Shown piece after piece: positions 7,450 through 63,240 of a DNA stretch of 64,000 bases (positions are counted from its first letter, which is position 1; each line of letters starts with the position of its first letter). The DNA is from Actinomycetota bacterium (GTDB taxonomy: Bacteria > Actinomycetota > UBA4738 > HRBIN12). The notes beneath the pieces were generated by a model that worked only from the letters and a program-made list of their open reading frames with translations, was not told the DNA's origin and made no database searches. The position numbers and the translations under genes were made by a program. The stretch is from the NCBI GenBank assembly GCA_036505195.1, contig DASXTX010000006.1:11553-75552 (forward strand), read 5' to 3'.

Positions 7450-8607
7450 CTACCGAGCCTCGATGATCTCGGCGGCACGCCGGCGAGCCCAGGTATCGGC
7501 CCGCTCGAGGTTCACCACCGAGACCACGCTCGAGGGCGCCTCGTGCTCGTCGACGACGGCCGTGACGACCTCGACGATGCGCGTGAGGGGGATCTTGCCC
7601 TCGAGGAAGGCCATGACCGCGACCTCGTTGGCCGCGCTCATGACCGCGGGGAAGGTCAGAGCGAGCTCGCCGACGCGATAGGACAGGTCGATCGCCGGGA
7701 ACGCCTCCCGATCGACCGGCTCGAACGACAGGCGGCTGTCGGCGAGTGGAACGGGGCCCACGCCCGTCGGGAGCCGCTCGGGCCAGGCGAGCGCGAGCTG
7801 GATGGGCAGCCGCATGTCCGGGACCGCGAGCTGAGCGGTCATCGACCCGTCCCGGAACTCCGCGAGCGCGTGCACGAGGCCCTCCGGGTGGATCACGGCG
7901 TGGATCTGCGAGTACTCGAGCCCGAACAGGTAGTGCGCCTCGATCACCTCGAGGCCTTTGTTCATCAACGTGGCCGAGTCGATCGTGATCTTCGGCCCCA
8001 TCTGCCAGACGGGGTGCGCGAGCGCCTCCTTCACGGAAGCCTTGGCGAGCTCCGCGTGGGTCCAGCCCCGGAACGGACCGCCCGACCCGGTCAGGATCAC
8101 GCGCTTCAGGTCCTCGCGGCGCTCCCCGCGCAGGCATTGAGCGAGCGCGGCGTGTTCCGAGTCGACCGGGATGAGCCGCTCCGGCTCGCCCTTGATCAGG
8201 TCGACGACGAGGTCGCCACCGACGACCAGGCTCTCCTTGTTTGCGAGGGCGAGCAGCTTGCCCGCCTGCAGGGTCGCGAGCGTGGGCGCCAGGCCGGCCG
8301 ACCCGACCAACGCGTTCAGGACCATGTCGGCCTCGGAATCTCGCGCCAGGCTCTCGGCCGCCTCGGGCCCCACGTGGACCTCAACGCCCCTGATGCCGGT
8401 GAGCTTCTCCTCGAGGTCGACGGCCGCCTCGTCGTTCGCGATGGCCACGTGCGGCGGGAGGAACTCCCGGATCTGCCCGACCAGGAGCTCCTGGTTGGTG
8501 CCCGCGGACAGGCCGACCACCTTGAACCGGTCGGGGTTGTGCCGCACGACGTCGAGCGCCTGCGTCCCCACCGATCCCGTCGAGCCGAGGATCACGAGCG
8601 AGCGCAT
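7450..8607 (-). CDS. dxr: 1-deoxy-D-xylulose 5-phosphate reductoisomerase
   Basis: N-terminal ILGSTGSVGTQALDV NADPH motif, NKES, and full-length Dxr-like sequence. Start at the MRSLVILG methionine. Confidence 0.9.
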   Translation of the reverse strand: MRSLVILGSTGSVGTQALDVVRHNPDRFKVVGLSAGTNQELLVGQIREFLPPHVAIANDEAAVDLEEKLTGIRGVEVHVGPEAAESLARDSEADMVLNALVGSAGLAPTLATLQAGKLLALANKESLVVGGDLVVDLIKGEPERLIPVDSEHAALAQCLRGERREDLKRVILTGSGGPFRGWTHAELAKASVKEALAHPVWQMGPKITIDSATLMNKGLEVIEAHYLFGLEYSQIHAVIHPEGLVHALAEFRDGSMTAQLAVPDMRLPIQLALAWPERLPTGVGPVPLADSRLSFEPVDREAFPAIDLSYRVGELALTFPAVMSAANEVAVMAFLEGKIPLTRIVEVVTAVVDEHEAPSSVVSVVNLERADTWARRRAAEIIEAR

Positions 8608-45791: not shown

Positions 45792-46298
45792 ATGCGGTCC
45801 ATGACGCTCCGCCGTCTCGGTCTCGCGCTCGCCTGCTGGGCACTGCTCGCGGCGGCGTGCGGCTCGAACGCACCGTCGACGCCCGCCCGGCTCCCCACCG
45901 ACCCGACCGCTCTGCCCGAGTTCACGCTCGCGGACTACCGGCACGCGCTCGGCGAGCTGCGGGGAACGCCGGTGGTGGTCAACGTGTGGGCGTCGTGGTG
46001 CGGCCCCTGCCGGGAGGAGGCGCCGCTCCTCGCGGCGGCGCACCGGACGTACGGCGACCGCGTCCGGTTCATCGGCGTCGACATCCTCGATGAGCGCGGA
46101 TCGGCACGGGACTTCATGCGCGAGTACGGGTGGACCTACCCGAGCGTGTACGACCCGAGCGGCGAGATCCGCGACGGCCTCGGCCTGCTCGGTCAACCCG
46201 TGACGCTCTTCTACGACGCGTCGGGAGAGCTGGTCGACACGTGGACGGGCCCGCTCTCGAAGGAGGCGTTGCGTTCGCGCCTCGATGCGATCGCGTGA
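45792..46298 (+). CDS. thioredoxin-like (TlpA/ResA-type) lipoprotein
   Basis: Lipobox-like LLAAACG and active site WASWCGPC. Confidence 0.8.
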   Translation: MRSMTLRRLGLALACWALLAAACGSNAPSTPARLPTDPTALPEFTLADYRHALGELRGTPVVVNVWASWCGPCREEAPLLAAAHRTYGDRVRFIGVDILDERGSARDFMREYGWTYPSVYDPSGEIRDGLGLLGQPVTLFYDASGELVDTWTGPLSKEALRSRLDAIA

Positions 46299-46299
46299 T

Positions 46300-49200
46300 C
46301 TACGTCAGGTGAGCCGTCTCGAGTGGCCGGAGCAGCGACGCCCGGGCGACGGCGGGGGTGTTGAGGGCATCCAGCACCTCTTTGGCCTTGCTCATCAAGC
46401 GCGGCGCTCGCCGTCGGTTCCCCGCTTGGCGTTCTGCGTGCGCTTGCATCGCGAGCGCACGAGCGAGCCATGCGGTAACGCCGAGCTCCCGCCACCGTTC
46501 GACGGCCTCGTGGAACGCAACGGCGGCTGCGTCGGCTCGCCCGGATCGAAGTTCGAGCAGCCCGCGGTTCTCCGCGTCGATCGCGGCGGGTTCGCCGGTC
46601 GCGGCCACGGATCTCGATGCGGCTCGGGGCTCGCGGCCGGACATGATCATCCCCTGGTCGCGCGCCGCTCTGGCGAGCAGGAGCGTCCCGGTCGCGCCGG
46701 CAGAGCGCGCCGCCCCGACGGCGCTGTCCAGATCGGCGAGAGCTCGCGACGGCTCACCTGCTTCGAGACGGGCGCGACCTGTCAGGAGCGGGGCGAGGGG
46801 CTCCCAGAGTCGCCATCCATTGGCCACGACACCGGAACGGAGTTCGTCCGCCGCCCGTTCGACCTCCCTCAACGAACCGCGATCCAGATGGATCTGGGCC
46901 GTTACCAAGTGGGCATCGAGGATGTCGAGTCGTGTAGGCGGTTGTAGCAACTTCACCGCCGAGCGCAGCCTACGGGTGGCTACCGCCGGGCGGCCCGATC
47001 GCGCTGCCGAGCGTGCGCCGGCAAGCATCCCGAGCGCGACGACGCGGTCCGCCTCCATCTCGTGCCCCATCATGATCGCGGCCTCGGCGAGCTGTTGGGC
47101 TCGTTCTTGTGGTCCGATGTGCGCGGTTGCCATCGCTTCGATCACGAGCGTGTCGGCCTCCGCGTACCGGTCGCCCGCTTCGACGGCGATGGGGCGGGCC
47201 TGTTGCATCAAACGGATCGCCTCGACGTGACGCCCCCGATAGTGCTCGAAGTACCCGCTCGTTCGCAGGAGGCCGCTCCGCGAACGGAGGTCGCCCTCCT
47301 TGGTCGCGAGTCGACGGCTCTCCCCGAACCACCGCCGGTACTCCCGCCCACCGACGACCGTCAGGAGGAAGGCGAGGTCCTGAGCGACGAGCGATCGGCC
47401 AACGGTCTGTCCTGCTGTGGTCAGCAGTTCGTACGCGAGCCGCAACTCCTCGAGCTCCTGCCGGTAGTCCTCGTCCGCCCACGTGTCGGATATCCAGAGA
47501 TGGGCCCACCCTTGCCCCCCAACATCGCCGCATTCCTGGAAGAGTGCCAACGCGCGTTGCAGCAAGGGTCGCGACCGTTCGGAAAGTCCTTGTGCCATGA
47601 GTGCCCTCGCTTGAAGGGCCCGGTCACCCGATCTGCGAGCAAGCTCGTGGGCACTGATCGCATGTTCGATCGCCCCGCGGCGACGGCCCATCTCCTCGAG
47701 CGCCTCGGATCTTCCGACGAGGAGCCTGGCACGTTCCGCATCCTCGACGCCCGACCCGGCCGCGTCGGCCACGCGCAGGGCTCGCGCGTACAGGGCCTCG
47801 GTCGCGCGGGCCTGGTACGCGAACGACTCCTCCGCATGGCGTCGGAGGGCCCGCACCGTGAGCGACGAGACGTCGGCGGGCGGTGGAGGTCCCGTCCGCG
47901 TTCGCAACAACAACCAGGCCGATTCGTAGTGGTGAGCAACCATCGCCGGATCCTCGTGGGGCGCATCCTCGCTGAGCCAGCGCGCGATCTCCAGGTGCTT
48001 GCGAGCACGTTCTGCCTTCGGAAGGGATTCGTAGGCGACCTCACGGATCAGGACGTGTTTGAACCCGTACTCGGAGCTTCCAGGGAGCCCGCTGCGCCGG
48101 CGCCGCCGGAGCAGGTCGCGTGCTTCCAAGGAACGGAGCAAGGGTCTGGACTTGGCGCCCTCGAGGAGGTCGTCGAGGAGCACTTCCCAGACCGCGTCAC
48201 CCACGACGGCCGCATCCTGCACCAGCCGCTTCTCGGCCGTGGGCAGCCCGTCGAGGCGTGCCGCGATGAGCCGCCGGATCGTCGATGGCACACGTTCGAC
48301 CTCGTGCGGCCGCCTGACCGCCCATCGCCCCCCTTCGAGCGCGATCGCTCCCGACTCCACGAGCATGCCGACGCTCTCCTCGAGGAACAAGGGGTTCCCT
48401 CCCGACCGCACCACCAGGTTGCGAAGCAGGTCGGGGCGGAGATCCGATCCGAGGACCTCCCGCGCGAGCACGCTCGAATGTCCCTCGTCAAGAGCACTCA
48501 ACTCGATGGCGGGAAGCGTTCGGCCGAACCCCTCCGGACGTGAGAGTCCGAGGACGAGGATCGGCCCCCGCCACGGGGAGGAGTAGATATCCTCGATCGC
48601 GTCAAGCAGCTCCGGATCCGCCCAGTGAAGGTCGTCGATGATGAACACCACGGGTCGCTTCCGGGCGAGGTCCTCCACGACCGTGCGTACCGCTCGAAGA
48701 AGTGGTTCGATCGGGTCGGGTCGACGATTCCCCGGACGTTCGATCCCGAGGAGGATCCCGATGTTCCGAACAACTGCCGCCCTCTCTTGCGCATCGGCCA
48801 CGCGGACGGCAACCCGCTCGATCGCGGTCCTGACCTTGTCTTGATCCCTCGACCCGCTCGGAACGATGGCGCCCGACAGCGCCTCCGCGAGCGCGTCCAA
48901 CGGCCGCCTGCGCCCGAAGGGACGACACCTCCCCGACAGTACCGTGGCTATTTGGACCCGCCGCGCGAACTCCTCCGCGAGTCGGGACTTGCCAAGGCCC
49001 GGCTCGCCCGATACCACCTCGACCCGGGAGCGTCGGGTGCGGGTCGCGTTCCGAAGCTCGACCTCCAAGCGGGCGATCTCGGTGTGACGATCCACGAACG
49101 GCGCCGCCTCCTTCGGCCGACGAGCCCTGTGCACGAGCGTTTGGGCCGTGAGCGCTTCGTACGTCGGGAGGGATTGCTCCAGCCCCTTCACGCGTCTGCG

Positions 49201-49803
49201 TCGTCGCGGCCCGTAGGAGATCGCATGCGACGTGAGGTCGACTGTGTGCCGATCGACGAGGACTCGCCCTGGCATGGCGAGATCGGCCAGACGCGAGGCA
49301 ACGTTGACTGTGTCACCTACGACGCGGAAGCCTGCCTGTTCGTCGGCCGGGGCTACCATCACCTCGCCCGAGTTCACGCCCGCGTGGACGTCGGGGAACC
49401 GGACGTGCGGCCCGTCGGCGTTCAGGCGATGGACGTGATCGCGGAGCGCGATCGCCGCACGCACCGCTCGCTCGGCATCGTCCTCGTGGGCGACCGGCAC
49501 GCCGAACACGGCCATGAATCCATCCCCCATGACCTGGGGGACGGTTCCACCGAACTCCTCGACGATCTCCTGAAGCTCTCGCATCGTCGGGCGGAGGAAG
49601 GTGTAGACCTCCTCAGGGTCCAGCGACGCTGCCAGGCGCGTGTATCCCGTCAGGTCGGCAAAGAGGATGCTGACGTGCTTGCGCTCGCCCCGGGGAGCGA
49701 CCAGGGGAGTCCCATCCGCCCGCCTCCCATCGGAGGTCTTTCCGCCCGCCAGATCGGGTCTACTCCGGTATGAAGGCGAACGAGCTGTCGGTCGACGAGA
49801 CAC
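46300..49803 (-). CDS. class III adenylate/guanylate cyclase - STAND (AAA_16-like) ATPase - TPR repeat protein
   Basis: Cyclase motifs ILFADLTGYT, MGDGFMAVFG, GDTVNVASRL. Walker A GEPGLGKS and Walker B VVFIIDDLHWAD. About 650 aa of helical repeats. No LuxR-type HTH at the C-terminus. Confidence 0.85.
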   Translation of the reverse strand: MSRRPTARSPSYRSRPDLAGGKTSDGRRADGTPLVAPRGERKHVSILFADLTGYTRLAASLDPEEVYTFLRPTMRELQEIVEEFGGTVPQVMGDGFMAVFGVPVAHEDDAERAVRAAIALRDHVHRLNADGPHVRFPDVHAGVNSGEVMVAPADEQAGFRVVGDTVNVASRLADLAMPGRVLVDRHTVDLTSHAISYGPRRRRRVKGLEQSLPTYEALTAQTLVHRARRPKEAAPFVDRHTEIARLEVELRNATRTRRSRVEVVSGEPGLGKSRLAEEFARRVQIATVLSGRCRPFGRRRPLDALAEALSGAIVPSGSRDQDKVRTAIERVAVRVADAQERAAVVRNIGILLGIERPGNRRPDPIEPLLRAVRTVVEDLARKRPVVFIIDDLHWADPELLDAIEDIYSSPWRGPILVLGLSRPEGFGRTLPAIELSALDEGHSSVLAREVLGSDLRPDLLRNLVVRSGGNPLFLEESVGMLVESGAIALEGGRWAVRRPHEVERVPSTIRRLIAARLDGLPTAEKRLVQDAAVVGDAVWEVLLDDLLEGAKSRPLLRSLEARDLLRRRRRSGLPGSSEYGFKHVLIREVAYESLPKAERARKHLEIARWLSEDAPHEDPAMVAHHYESAWLLLRTRTGPPPPADVSSLTVRALRRHAEESFAYQARATEALYARALRVADAAGSGVEDAERARLLVGRSEALEEMGRRRGAIEHAISAHELARRSGDRALQARALMAQGLSERSRPLLQRALALFQECGDVGGQGWAHLWISDTWADEDYRQELEELRLAYELLTTAGQTVGRSLVAQDLAFLLTVVGGREYRRWFGESRRLATKEGDLRSRSGLLRTSGYFEHYRGRHVEAIRLMQQARPIAVEAGDRYAEADTLVIEAMATAHIGPQERAQQLAEAAIMMGHEMEADRVVALGMLAGARSAARSGRPAVATRRLRSAVKLLQPPTRLDILDAHLVTAQIHLDRGSLREVERAADELRSGVVANGWRLWEPLAPLLTGRARLEAGEPSRALADLDSAVGAARSAGATGTLLLARAARDQGMIMSGREPRAASRSVAATGEPAAIDAENRGLLELRSGRADAAAVAFHEAVERWRELGVTAWLARALAMQAHAERQAGNRRRAPRLMSKAKEVLDALNTPAVARASLLRPLETAHLT

Positions 49804-50356
49804 CCTCGATAGGCCTGATCCGCTCGAAGATAAGCTTCGTCAGATCCTCCATCGAGGCGGCGGCGAGCTCGACCAAGATGTCGAAACCCTTCCCCGAAAC
49901 GGTAGCGGCCGCGTAGTAGAAGTGGTCTCGCCAGCCGTCCTCTCCATACTCCCCGATGAGAGGATCGACGATCGGCGCGAAGGCCGCGTCGAGGTCGTCC
50001 AGGACGTCGTCCGGGTTCCTTCGCTTGGTCCTCACGCGGATCAGGGCGTGGAACGGCGGGCTTCCCCTGTGCGGAGCCCCGTAGAGGCTCGGCCTGGTCG
50101 CGAGCGACCACTCGGACCGCACGCCCGCGTCCCAGAACTCGCCTGCGATCCGAGCCTGCAGGTCCTCGAGCGAATCGGCATCGACAGCGCCGAATGCGAT
50201 GAACGAACCAACGAAGTGGTGTGCCCAGCGCACGCCCGTCTTCGATCTGAATTGATCGAGGACGTCCTCGATCTTGTTGAAGCCTTCCCTCGGAGCCCCC
50301 GGCTCGAAGAGATGCATGAACACGTACGCGTTGATCGCGGGTTCCTCGCTCGGCAT
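49760..50356 (-). CDS. hypothetical protein with internal duplication of a RAM/ACT-like (ferredoxin-fold) module
   Basis: 198 aa. Two ~90-aa halves share the pattern hydrophobic beta strand / helix / G.(F)(D/I)..... / (S)(L/M)EDL helix / GV.S. The 3' end overlaps the cyclase gene start by 44 nt. Confidence 0.6.
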   Translation of the reverse strand: MPSEEPAINAYVFMHLFEPGAPREGFNKIEDVLDQFRSKTGVRWAHHFVGSFIAFGAVDADSLEDLQARIAGEFWDAGVRSEWSLATRPSLYGAPHRGSPPFHALIRVRTKRRNPDDVLDDLDAAFAPIVDPLIGEYGEDGWRDHFYYAAATVSGKGFDILVELAAASMEDLTKLIFERIRPIEGVSSTDSSFAFIPE

Positions 50357-50456
50357 GATCCTTCGCCTCCCTCCGCAGCGATGAAGCCACTTTGATGCTC
50401 TTCCGTCTCGGGTGCAACCTCGAGGGTTCGAAACCGTCTGCTACCCTCGTTGCGCC

Positions 50457-50648
50457 ATGGCCGCCGTCTGCGACATCTGCGGGAAGAAGCCGTTCTTCGG
50501 CATGCAGGTCTCCCACTCGCACCGCCGCTCCCCCAAGCGGTGGAACCCCAACGTGCAGCGCGTCCGCGCGCTCGTGAACGGGACGCCCAGGCGCCTGCAC
50601 GTCTGTACGAGCTGCCTGAAGGCCGGCAAGGTCCAGCGCGCGGTCTAA
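50457..50648 (+). CDS. rpmB: 50S ribosomal protein L28 (Cys-containing form)
   Basis: MAAVCDICGKKPFFGMQVSHSHRRSPKRWNPNVQ...CTSC. 63 aa. Confidence 0.9.
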   Translation: MAAVCDICGKKPFFGMQVSHSHRRSPKRWNPNVQRVRALVNGTPRRLHVCTSCLKAGKVQRAV

Positions 50649-50779: not shown

Positions 50780-51234
50780 TGGCAACGTCTTGATCGTCGA
50801 CGACCCCACGGTGCGAGAGAGCCTTCGGGACTGCTCGAGCGCCGAGCCCCCTCGACGGTCGGAGCGGCCAGCAACGGCACCGAGGCCGTTTTCGATGCCG
50901 AGCTCGCTCGAGTCCGACCTGATCGTGATGGATCGGATGATGCCACGGACAGACGGCATCGAGGCCCCCGACTTGATCAAGGCCCACCCTGCCGCAGACG
51001 CAGGTCATCCTGCTGTCCGCGCAGGTCTCACCGAGAACGTGCGCTTGCCCGCCTCCTGCGGCACGTCCACGTGATCCCGGTGACCCAATCGACTCCCTCC
51101 AGGACCGGGCCCGCGGGGCCGACGTCGGAGCCGACGCGTACATCACAAAAGGCGCGTTCCACGACGAGCGGCTGATCGACACGGTCCGAAGCTTCGTCGG
51201 AGGATCCGCCGGCGAGCCAGCCAAGGTCCCCTAG
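50780..51234 (+). pseudogene. frameshifted CheY-like response-regulator remnant
   Basis: Receiver-domain pieces lie in three frames: VLIVDDPTVRESLRD; then LLERR..AASNGTEAVFDAELARVRPD; then LIVMDRMMPRTDGIEA.DLIKAHPA; then QTQVILLSAQ...GADAYITKGAFHDERLIDTVRSFVG with a stop at 51232-51234. Confidence 0.6.
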
Positions 51235-56071: not shown

Positions 56072-56305
56072 GTGGTCCAGGCCTACATCCTGATCCAGAC
56101 CGAGGTCGGCAAGGCCGCCCAGGTCGCCAAGGAGGTCCGCGACATCGCCGGCGTCGCCGAGGCCGAGGACGTGACGGGGCCCTACGACGTGATCGTGCGC
56201 GCCGAGGCGAAGAACGTCGACGAGCTGGGCAAGCTGGTCGTCGCGAAGATCCAGGGCGTCGAGGGGATCACTCGGACGCTCACCTGCCCCGTCGTCCACC
56301 TGTAG
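56072..56305 (+). CDS. stand-alone Lrp/AsnC-type ligand-binding (RAM) domain protein
   Basis: 77 aa with MVQAYILIQTEVGK...TGPYDVIVRAEAKNVDELGKLV...VEGITRTLT. Confidence 0.75.
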   Translation: MVQAYILIQTEVGKAAQVAKEVRDIAGVAEAEDVTGPYDVIVRAEAKNVDELGKLVVAKIQGVEGITRTLTCPVVHL

Positions 56306-63141: not shown

Positions 63142-63172
63142 CCAGAGGGCGCTGTTAGCATGGCGCCTCTGG
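63142..63172 (+). terminator. imperfect hairpin after the protease gene, touching the tRNA 5' end
   Basis: CCAGAGGGCGC-(10 nt)-GCGCCTCTGG, about 10 bp with one bulge. Confidence 0.35.
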
Positions 63173-63240
63173 CCCGTGGGGTAACGGTAGCCCGGCTGAC
63201 TCTGGATCAGTTAGTCCTGGTTCGAATCCAGGCGGGCCAG
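63170..63240 (+). tRNA. tRNA-Gln (anticodon CUG)
   Basis: Hand-folded cloverleaf. Acceptor is TGGCCCG/CGGGCCA with U1-A72 (typical of bacterial tRNA-Gln). D stem is GGGT/GCCC. Anticodon stem is GCTGA/TCAGT with loop CT-CTG-GA. T arm is CCTGG-TTCGAAT-CCAGG. No encoded CCA. Confidence 0.85.

Follow-up and report, generated by a model that had tools for sequence, protein, structure and literature searches.

We analysed a 64,000-nucleotide (nt) stretch of the Actinomycetota contig DASXTX010000006.1, hereafter the window, which is GC-rich (70.3%). Two open reading frames (ORFs) lie side by side on its minus strand, gene 1 at 49760-50356 and gene 2 at 46300-49803. Their neighbours are recG and a thioredoxin/AhpC-like gene in convergent orientation at one end and, at the other, rpmB (50457-50648, divergent) and then thiD and thiL; both the coordinates and the setting given for the pair in an initial annotation made from the sequence alone were confirmed by the ORFs and by Pfam. 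Gene 1 encodes a protein of 198 amino acids (aa) with a RAM-type domain, and gene 2 a large protein that combines a class III nucleotidyl cyclase with a MalT-type STAND ATPase and a TPR solenoid. Our best reading is that the pair is a conserved unit of two genes, or operon, in an uncultured (soil) Actinomycetota lineage.

The maximal ORF of gene 2 (1167 aa from GTG 49803, stop codon at 46302-46300) matched Guanylate_cyc over residues 41-215 (49159-49683 on the minus strand; 74.5 bits against a cut-off of 21.9) and AAA_16 over residues 236-417 (75.7 bits), the latter corresponding to the STAND nucleotide-binding oligomerisation domain (NOD) at 48553-49098. A match to TPR_12 was weak, and TPR_MalT was matched in homologues. 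Residues were checked in an alignment to the solved cyclases Cya2 (2w01) and CyaB (3r5g) and to 32 homologues. Both metal-binding Asp residues (within FADL and MGDG) are intact, as are the Asn and Arg of the transition state (within TVNVASR), and these four residues are invariant across the homologues together with Walker A and Walker B (GEPGLGKS and FIIDDLHWAD in gene 2; GxxGxGK(S/T) and hhhhDD as family forms). With the Guanylate_cyc match, the two Asp, the Asn and the Arg, gene 2 has the features of a class III cyclase. The intact cyclase motifs claimed earlier thus hold for the catalytic residues but not for the substrate-specifying positions. Gln occupies the first of these, a position held by Lys in adenylyl and by Glu in guanylyl cyclases, and the second is Arg (R, A, K or T among relatives), so that gene 2 carries neither canonical pair (Lys with Asp/Thr for ATP; Glu with Cys/Gly/Ser for GTP). 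Because both positions are non-canonical, the product is not predictable.

In the AlphaFold2 model of gene 2 (predicted local distance difference test, pLDDT, 82.3), the ~570 residues after the NOD fold into paired helices, mostly at pLDDT >90, which form a TPR-like α-solenoid (46303-48015) presumed to be a sensor and protein-interaction domain. The best fold match in the PDB (E 1.4e-12 over 753 columns) was PH0952 (6mfv), a MalT homologue that serves as the reference for TPR-sensor STANDs. The next matches were Apaf-1, CED-4, one chain from the MalT negative-regulation complex, and a plant NLR. The P-loop NOD with its Walker A and B motifs, the helical modules and the repeat sensor are those of the MalT clade of STAND proteins. 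No LuxR/GerE match was found in gene 2 by Pfam, and the TPR-like helices run to the C-terminus of the model; the protein therefore lacks the C-terminal LuxR/GerE helix-turn-helix (HTH) that defines Rv0386-type LuxR-family cyclases, in agreement with the domain order first proposed, and the cyclase is its sole output for this reason. The model of the TOMM kinase/cyclase fusion (TIGR03903) scored 219 bits against a cut-off of 705.75 and aligned over model positions 273-884 only, without any kinase part. The HTH-less cyclase-STAND-TPR architecture is common, with >6,000 clusters at E ≤ 1e-20, many of which carry the existing label "class 3 adenylate cyclase/TPR repeat protein". In the long contigs (ERZ250395xx-ERZ250396xx) of the related loci L001, L006/L007 and L025, gene 2 is spread over several ORFs or off by 1 nt. 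These broken copies look like assembly indel errors rather than pseudogenes and were treated as such, because a short-read contig with the same small protein as L001 (P0006) carries an intact gene 2 of 1095 aa.

Gene 1 begins with an ATG behind a strong Shine-Dalgarno sequence (GGAGGGAGG) and ends with a TAG at 49762-49760. Residues 150-194 matched Pfam AsnC_trans_reg (PF01037; E 2.4e-10, 40.6 bits, cut-off 25), and the RAM match by sequence is confined to the C-terminal half ('VSGKGFDILVE...GVSSTDSSF'). The family profile, built from 30 members, likewise matched the RAM domains of 7fby, 9w4v, 2cvi and 2zbc in the PDB with the C-terminal half only. An AlphaFold2 model based on the family alignment (pLDDT 87.7; predicted template modelling score 0.85) contains two βαββαβ units, one at residues 8-90 (50087-50335, delimited by DSSP of the model) and one at residues 102-195 (49772-50053, where PF01037 and the family profile match). 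The RAM gathering score is thus exceeded in the C-terminal half and the βαββαβ α/β-sandwich fold is predicted twice, which bears out the RAM-like, ferredoxin-type fold suggested in the initial annotation. Its proposal of an internal duplication stands on the predicted fold; proof at the sequence level was sought with hhalign, BLASTP and Pfam on the N-terminal half, and all three failed. The hhalign comparison of the halves falls in the register proposed earlier, and the N-terminal unit is RAM-like by its fold and its 'GVRSEWS' end motif only.

Neither Pfam nor the model revealed an HTH or an enzyme, membrane or other output domain in gene 1. It thus lacks the N-terminal winged HTH of full-length Lrp/AsnC (FFRP) regulators, and with 198 aa and two units it also differs from stand-alone RAM proteins (one unit, ~75-85 aa). 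On the predicted structure, we read the protein as a covalent single-chain pseudo-dimer of RAM-type units without a DNA-binding domain. The JGI label 'DNA-binding Lrp family transcriptional regulator', carried by some gene 1 homologues, is wrong, because no HTH was matched and the N-terminal half is a second βαββαβ unit. RAM domains normally dimerise via their β-sheets, and where subunits of an oligomer meet they bind amino acids or other metabolites, on which their assembly state depends; the physiological role of stand-alone RAM proteins is unsettled (PMC2995911). A gene for a single stand-alone RAM protein of 77 aa is present at 56072-56302 on the plus strand, ~6 kb from the pair. This protein is very strongly conserved, being 100% identical to the copy in L006 and 95% to that in L021, and the tandem-RAM proteins of the L006/L021 lineages are only ~50% identical to gene 1 of the window.

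Tandem-RAM proteins constitute a narrow family, with 44 clusters in a word-indexed search, 105 representatives at E < 1e-3 among 1.84 billion, and members in 2 of 185,579 GTDB species representatives; all come from metagenomes or Actinomycetota metagenome-assembled genomes. A cyclase N-terminus lies immediately downstream of gene 1 in all 19 close loci. The order thiL-thiD-rpmB and, divergently, tandem RAM-cyclase-(Trx)-recG is kept in L001, L002, L004, L019/L020 and L021, and the placement between rpmB and recG holds down to ~43-49% identity of the small protein. Among relatives recognised by profile only, a tandem-RAM gene stands beside a cyclase-STAND-TPR gene in at least three unrelated genomic contexts. 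In L022/L023, the pair is surrounded by genes for CsbD, an anti-sigma-type kinase, GAF-SpoIIE and an oxidase, and a 14-nt gap separates its members; the gap is 7 nt in L027. In L028, the pair is located between polA and rpsA on a 3-Mb contig, and the upstream protein, unannotated and 212 aa long, matched the family profile with 98.7% probability (E 3e-16). Co-occurrence in other genomes, which had been named beforehand as the test of the pairing, was thus found both in the close loci and in unrelated contexts. Pairwise divergence in one protein is correlated with that in the other (Mantel r 0.91, p ~2e-4), the small protein being the faster-evolving one, which fits inheritance as a unit and is not specific evidence of interaction. 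We consider it quite probable that the gene 1 and gene 2 proteins are functionally linked.

The junction of the two genes was compared across 14 distinct junctions of the clade. In the window, GTG 49803 is the sole in-frame ATG, GTG or TTG upstream of the first metal-binding Asp (FADL), and a start there would overlap gene 1 by 44 nt. The overlap described in the initial annotation is correct to this extent, but its role as the coupling device is not supported: the equivalent GTG occurs in only 3 of the 14 junctions and the frame offset between the genes varies (0, 1 or 2). No canonical start codon (ATG, GTG or TTG) precedes FADL in half of the junctions (7/14), and in the window, L002 and L004 the in-frame GTG, ATG or TTG arises from rare T-ending codons at an invariant (D/E)-G-V of gene 1. 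A selected overlapping start as a general rule was rejected, given that a start lies within ~80 nt of the gene 1 end in 5 of 14 junctions and that the frame offset is not constant; a sixth junction, L012, has a GTG 172 nt upstream. An in-frame CTG is found 81-90 nt upstream of LFADL in 13 of the 14 junctions, 6-17 nt after the gene 1 stop (TAG in 12 of 14) and behind a GGAG-like tract, and its copy in the window, 49752-49750, follows the TAG by 7 nt. CTG accounts for only 25% of gene 2 Leu codons, but the invariance of this CTG was rejected as codon-level proof of a start: among five control Leu columns one was also CTG in 13/13 sequences and another in 11/13. Because the invariance recurs in control columns, the CTG start is kept as hypothetical. 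A further in-frame CTG at 49704-49702 ('PLVAPRGERK') aligns with the called GTG or ATG start of the three closest relatives (97, 91 and 89% identical). The candidate starts of gene 2 in the window are therefore three, GTG 49803-49801 and CTG 49752, both within the junction at 49750-49803, and CTG 49704.

In more distant modules, a canonical ATG, GTG or TTG takes the place of the conserved CTG and lies 9-28 nt beyond the stop of gene 1. In L019/L020 (~7573-7576), the only plausible cyclase start is an ATA that overlaps the TAG (ggATAGac) and lies behind GGAGGA, 6 nt after GGGGAGGA; the gene call of L019 (GCA_005885345.1) begins at that ATA. Across the family, the two genes overlap by up to 83 nt at one extreme, and at the other gene 2 starts 120 nt past the stop of gene 1. 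A read-through or frameshift fusion of the two proteins was rejected, as gene 2 is in frame right after the TAG in L016 and in other frames in other loci. Judged from the aligned junctions, these positions fit a family-wide trait in which gene 2 would start tight against the gene 1 stop, often at a non-canonical codon, with its translation coupled to that of gene 1. Owing to the lack of a canonical start upstream of FADL, gene callers begin many orthologues at an internal Met downstream of it, losing a catalytic residue. Among the junctions surveyed for calls that begin at or past the first metal-binding Asp (L001-L007 and L010-L020), entries truncated by up to ~57 residues were P0190, P0191, P0193, P0196, P0203, P0205, P0206, P0209 and P0213, and the apparent 90-176-nt gaps between the genes are artefacts of such internal-Met calls.

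Upstream of the pair, the 100-nt region between gene 1 and the divergent rpmB (50357-50456) is conserved in length across the syntenic relatives. An alignment of seven loci revealed a conserved TTGC(A/G)C, a 17-nt spacer and CA(A/G)AGT, followed by GGAGGGAG and the ATG. These blocks are probably the promoter and ribosome-binding site of the pair, and a simple consensus promoter scan of the region upstream of gene 1 returned no promoter. Gene 1 and gene 2 are on the same strand, and no terminator-like site was found between them in a simple scan.

We propose, with slightly less than even confidence, that the RAM protein is a regulatory, metabolite-sensing partner that gates multimerisation of the STAND protein and hence dimerisation of the cyclase and output of cyclic nucleotide. 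Class III cyclases are active only as dimers. STAND proteins that carry a TPR sensor rest as ADP-bound autoinhibited monomers that multimerise on binding an inducer, and MalT is also restrained by separate inhibitor proteins (PMC6468293). The working model results from putting this STAND, cyclase-dimer and RAM background together with the conserved pairing. Gene 1 and gene 2 would be expressed from one transcript, with gene 1 immediately upstream, and in the gene 2 protein the N-terminal cyclase would serve as output, the NOD as an ADP/ATP-driven oligomerisation switch and the TPR solenoid as sensor. The tandem-RAM protein would bind a small metabolite, much as amino acids and compounds related to them are bound by RAM domains, and would then engage the TPR or NOD part in a ligand-dependent manner, relieving or enforcing autoinhibition. 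Multimerisation of the STAND protein would bring the cyclase domains into the head-to-tail dimers needed for catalysis, and a cyclic nucleotide of uncertain identity would be made. We infer all of these steps, whereas the domain identities, the intact catalytic and Walker residues and the recurrent adjacency in several genomic contexts are observed. A more specific version, which we hold to be rather doubtful, casts tandem-RAM proteins as subunits that sense a ligand for MalT-type STAND cyclases and are detachable from them, in a pathway from metabolite to cyclic nucleotide. They and not the TPR would read the small molecule and gate STAND oligomerisation, and gene 2 synthesis would depend on translation of the partner via a weak or non-canonical start right behind the partner's stop codon.

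Several observations weigh against a RAM-type regulatory partner. The cyclase domain of gene 2 was modelled with low confidence. The N-terminal half of gene 1 alone gave zero Pfam matches, the comparison of its two halves by hhalign was not significant (E 0.038 across 15 columns), and Lrp appeared only at rank 49 of the whole-chain fold search. The top of that search was taken by 2pgc, chlorite dismutase/HemQ, 3mcs (ABM-type) and PenE (E 2e-5 to 4e-4, TM-score ~0.5), so that the small protein might instead be an enzyme, or a protein that binds a cofactor, with a tandem α+β barrel like that of ABM monooxygenases, chlorite dismutase/HemQ or Dabb, and might make or modify the molecule sensed by the STAND protein, a reading with which the missing RAM signal in the N-terminal half would agree. 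However, the identities to these matches are 9-14% with root-mean-square deviations of 5.6-9 Å, no haem-ligand or catalytic motif was identified in gene 1, the C-terminal half is above the Pfam RAM threshold, and by sequence the family profile matches only RAM proteins in the PDB; we regard an enzyme as quite improbable. If the small protein acts downstream of the cyclase, it could be the receptor of the cyclic nucleotide that gene 2 produces, or part of a feedback on it, as in cyclase-receptor gene pairs. The adjacency data are equally compatible with this arrangement, RAM-type domains do bind small molecules, and in view of the unusual specificity residues of the cyclase one can conceive of an unusual product with a receptor of its own. 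The small protein nevertheless has no output domain (HTH, enzyme or membrane), the review names amino acids and 2-oxoglutarate as RAM ligands but no nucleotides (PMC2995911), and the STAND protein already has a large sensor domain in need of input, which makes a receptor unlikely.

The two genes could also be mere neighbours whose common transcript or position is a legacy of their history, with no functional interaction between them. Adjacency and co-divergence are equally expected of two vertically inherited neighbours, and most of the observations come from one syntenic block, in which neighbours co-occur and co-diverge anyway. Three further points run counter to a functional pair: a distant homologue, L026 (E 1e-11), has no cyclase within the ~400 nt before its contig ends; the pair in L025, in which the cyclase domain was confirmed, is convergent and not co-transcribed; and the families differ greatly in size, >6,000 cyclase clusters against ~100 partner representatives, so that many cyclases of the gene 2 type may have no partner. 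Mere neighbourhood is contradicted by the retention of the pair in at least three unrelated neighbourhoods while all other neighbours change, even in convergent orientation in L025, and by the very short stop-to-start distances, and we give it little credence. The initial annotation had also alluded to immune NTPases, and an anti-phage defence system with an Avs-like STAND sensor, a cyclase effector of the Pycsar kind and the small protein as an accessory would share the effector-STAND-TPR layout of Avs-type NTPases and would agree with the non-canonical substrate-specifying residues. PADLOC did return PycC matches to the cyclase domain (best E 7e-14), but these are weaker than the Guanylate_cyc match (49.7 against 74.5 bits) and reflect the cyclase fold only. 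Neither the STAND module nor the small protein was matched by PADLOC, no toxic effector lies nearby, and the best fold match of gene 2 is a MalT homologue. The locus is moreover fixed and vertically conserved between housekeeping genes (rpmB, recG, thiD and thiL; polA and rpsA), unlike defence islands. With generic cyclase-fold matches of at most 49.7 bits and such neighbours, the pair does not belong with Pycsar or Avs, and a defence role is very unlikely.

A recently acquired, lower-GC insertion between recG/trx and rpmB, as the initial annotation had described the pair, is largely refuted and by now has next to no probability. The region 46300-50356 has 67.8% GC against 70.3% for the window, 2.5 points lower and at the 5th percentile of same-size windows, and the GC content at third codon positions (GC3) is 0.84 in gene 1 and 0.78 in gene 2 against 0.87 ± 0.06 for the 43 putative genes of the window, about 1.5 standard deviations below the gene mean for gene 2. 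The value of 60-62% GC given for sampled 60-nt stretches is not representative, the 60-nt stretches of the region averaging 67.9%. A GC3 of ≤0.80 is found in 9 of the 43 genes, orthologous loci show the same dip (0.80-0.88 against 0.89-0.94 in their flanks), and relatives hold the pair in the same position down to ~43% identity of gene 1. Neither the ORF list nor Rfam showed mobile-element genes, repeats or an adjacent tRNA at the borders of the pair. The modest GC3 dip is a stable property of these genes, and the pair is not a recent foreign insertion.

The genes around the pair complete the locus. The product of rpmB on the plus strand is ribosomal protein L28 (Pfam Ribosomal_L28, E 6e-22). 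The thioredoxin/AhpC-like gene (45792-46298, plus strand; Pfam and synteny), whose product has a lipoprotein-type N-terminus when its start is read at Met-65 of the ORF, is a neighbour in most syntenic relatives and missing in L021. Its stop and that of gene 2 are 1 nt apart (46296-46302); the same convergent ends overlap by ~30 nt in L002 and are 3 nt apart in L004 and L020, and a simple scan found no terminator-like structure at 46296-46302 on either strand. Just beyond rpmB, at 50780-51200 on the plus strand, remnants of a CheY-like response regulator extend across three reading frames, the N-terminal pieces resembling the regulator of L001/L004 and the C-terminal pieces that of L002. Relatives have an intact receiver gene at this position, several of them with a CheA/CheW/MCP/GGDEF cluster that is absent from the window. 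Two origins would explain the remnants, a deletion that left a pseudogene behind or a frameshift in the assembly. The sole Rfam match in the window is a single tRNA gene at 63170-63240 on the plus strand, unrelated to the pair.

The pairing suggests a so far undescribed route by which a metabolite signal is fed into STAND cyclases. Proteins that combine a cyclase, a MalT-type ATPase and TPR repeats are numerous in Actinomycetota, where the clusters mentioned above are found, and include Rv0386 of Mycobacterium tuberculosis; the input to the ATPase/TPR part of Rv0386-type cyclases is unstudied (bioRxiv 10.1101/2024.03.06.583649). The pair yields a testable hypothesis, namely that a RAM protein links amino-acid or metabolite status to cyclic-nucleotide signalling. 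If the detachable RAM subunit is real, stand-alone RAM proteins would gain a concrete role, and there would be a hint on how Rv0386-like cyclases are controlled. For annotation, it follows from the junctions that cyclase database entries in this clade are often N-terminally truncated and that the short inter-gene 'gaps' are artefactual.

Among known systems, the M. tuberculosis proteins Rv0386, Rv1358 and Rv2488c likewise consist of an N-terminal class III cyclase (theirs of class IIIc), an AAA_16/MalT-type NTPase and TPR-like repeats. The Rv0386 group shares with gene 2 a Gln in place of Lys at the first specificity position, but a Gln-Asn pair has been reported for it (bioRxiv 10.1101/2024.03.06.583649), whereas the gene 2 family has Arg, Ala, Lys or Thr in place of the Asn. 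The group also has the C-terminal LuxR HTH that gene 2 lacks, and, in contrast to the tandem-RAM gene upstream of gene 2, no such partner is mentioned for the M. tuberculosis proteins (bioRxiv 10.1101/2024.03.06.583649). With MalT and PH0952, gene 2 has in common the fold of NOD, arm and TPR sensor (6mfv being the best match) and intact Walker A and B motifs, and control by an inducer and separate inhibitor proteins provides a precedent (PMC6468293). The effector of gene 2 is a fused N-terminal cyclase and that of MalT a DNA-binding domain; the presumed partner of gene 2 is a RAM-type protein, and those of MalT are MalK, MalY and Aes.

Stand-alone RAM proteins such as Pyrococcus DM1 and Sulfolobus STS042 (2cvi and 2zbc) resemble gene 1 in having a RAM fold without an HTH, and their sequences are similar to its C-terminal unit. 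The known members bind amino acids and change their oligomeric state (PMC2995911). They have a single unit where gene 1 has two RAM-like ones, the N-terminal unit of gene 1 has diverged beyond sequence recognition, and gene 1 is genetically tied to a STAND cyclase and not to Lrp-type regulators. Tandem 'dimeric α+β barrel' proteins (2pgc, chlorite dismutase/HemQ and 3mcs) have the same two-unit βαββαβ architecture, but at the identities and TM-scores given above there is no sequence-level relationship. Pycsar and Avs share with the pair a class III-like cyclase fold, through the weak PycC matches, and the effector-STAND-TPR layout; the pair differs in having no toxic effector activated by a cyclic nucleotide, no match to an Avs/STAND model, and a housekeeping setting. 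In the searchable literature, whose coverage is incomplete so that this is absence of evidence, we found no description of a RAM partner for such cyclases, which accords with the initial annotation, where a cyclase with a small-ligand-binding partner was considered undescribed. Stand-alone RAM proteins and cyclase-STAND-TPR proteins were already known, and what appears to be new here is the conserved pairing of a tandem-RAM protein with a cyclase-STAND-TPR protein.

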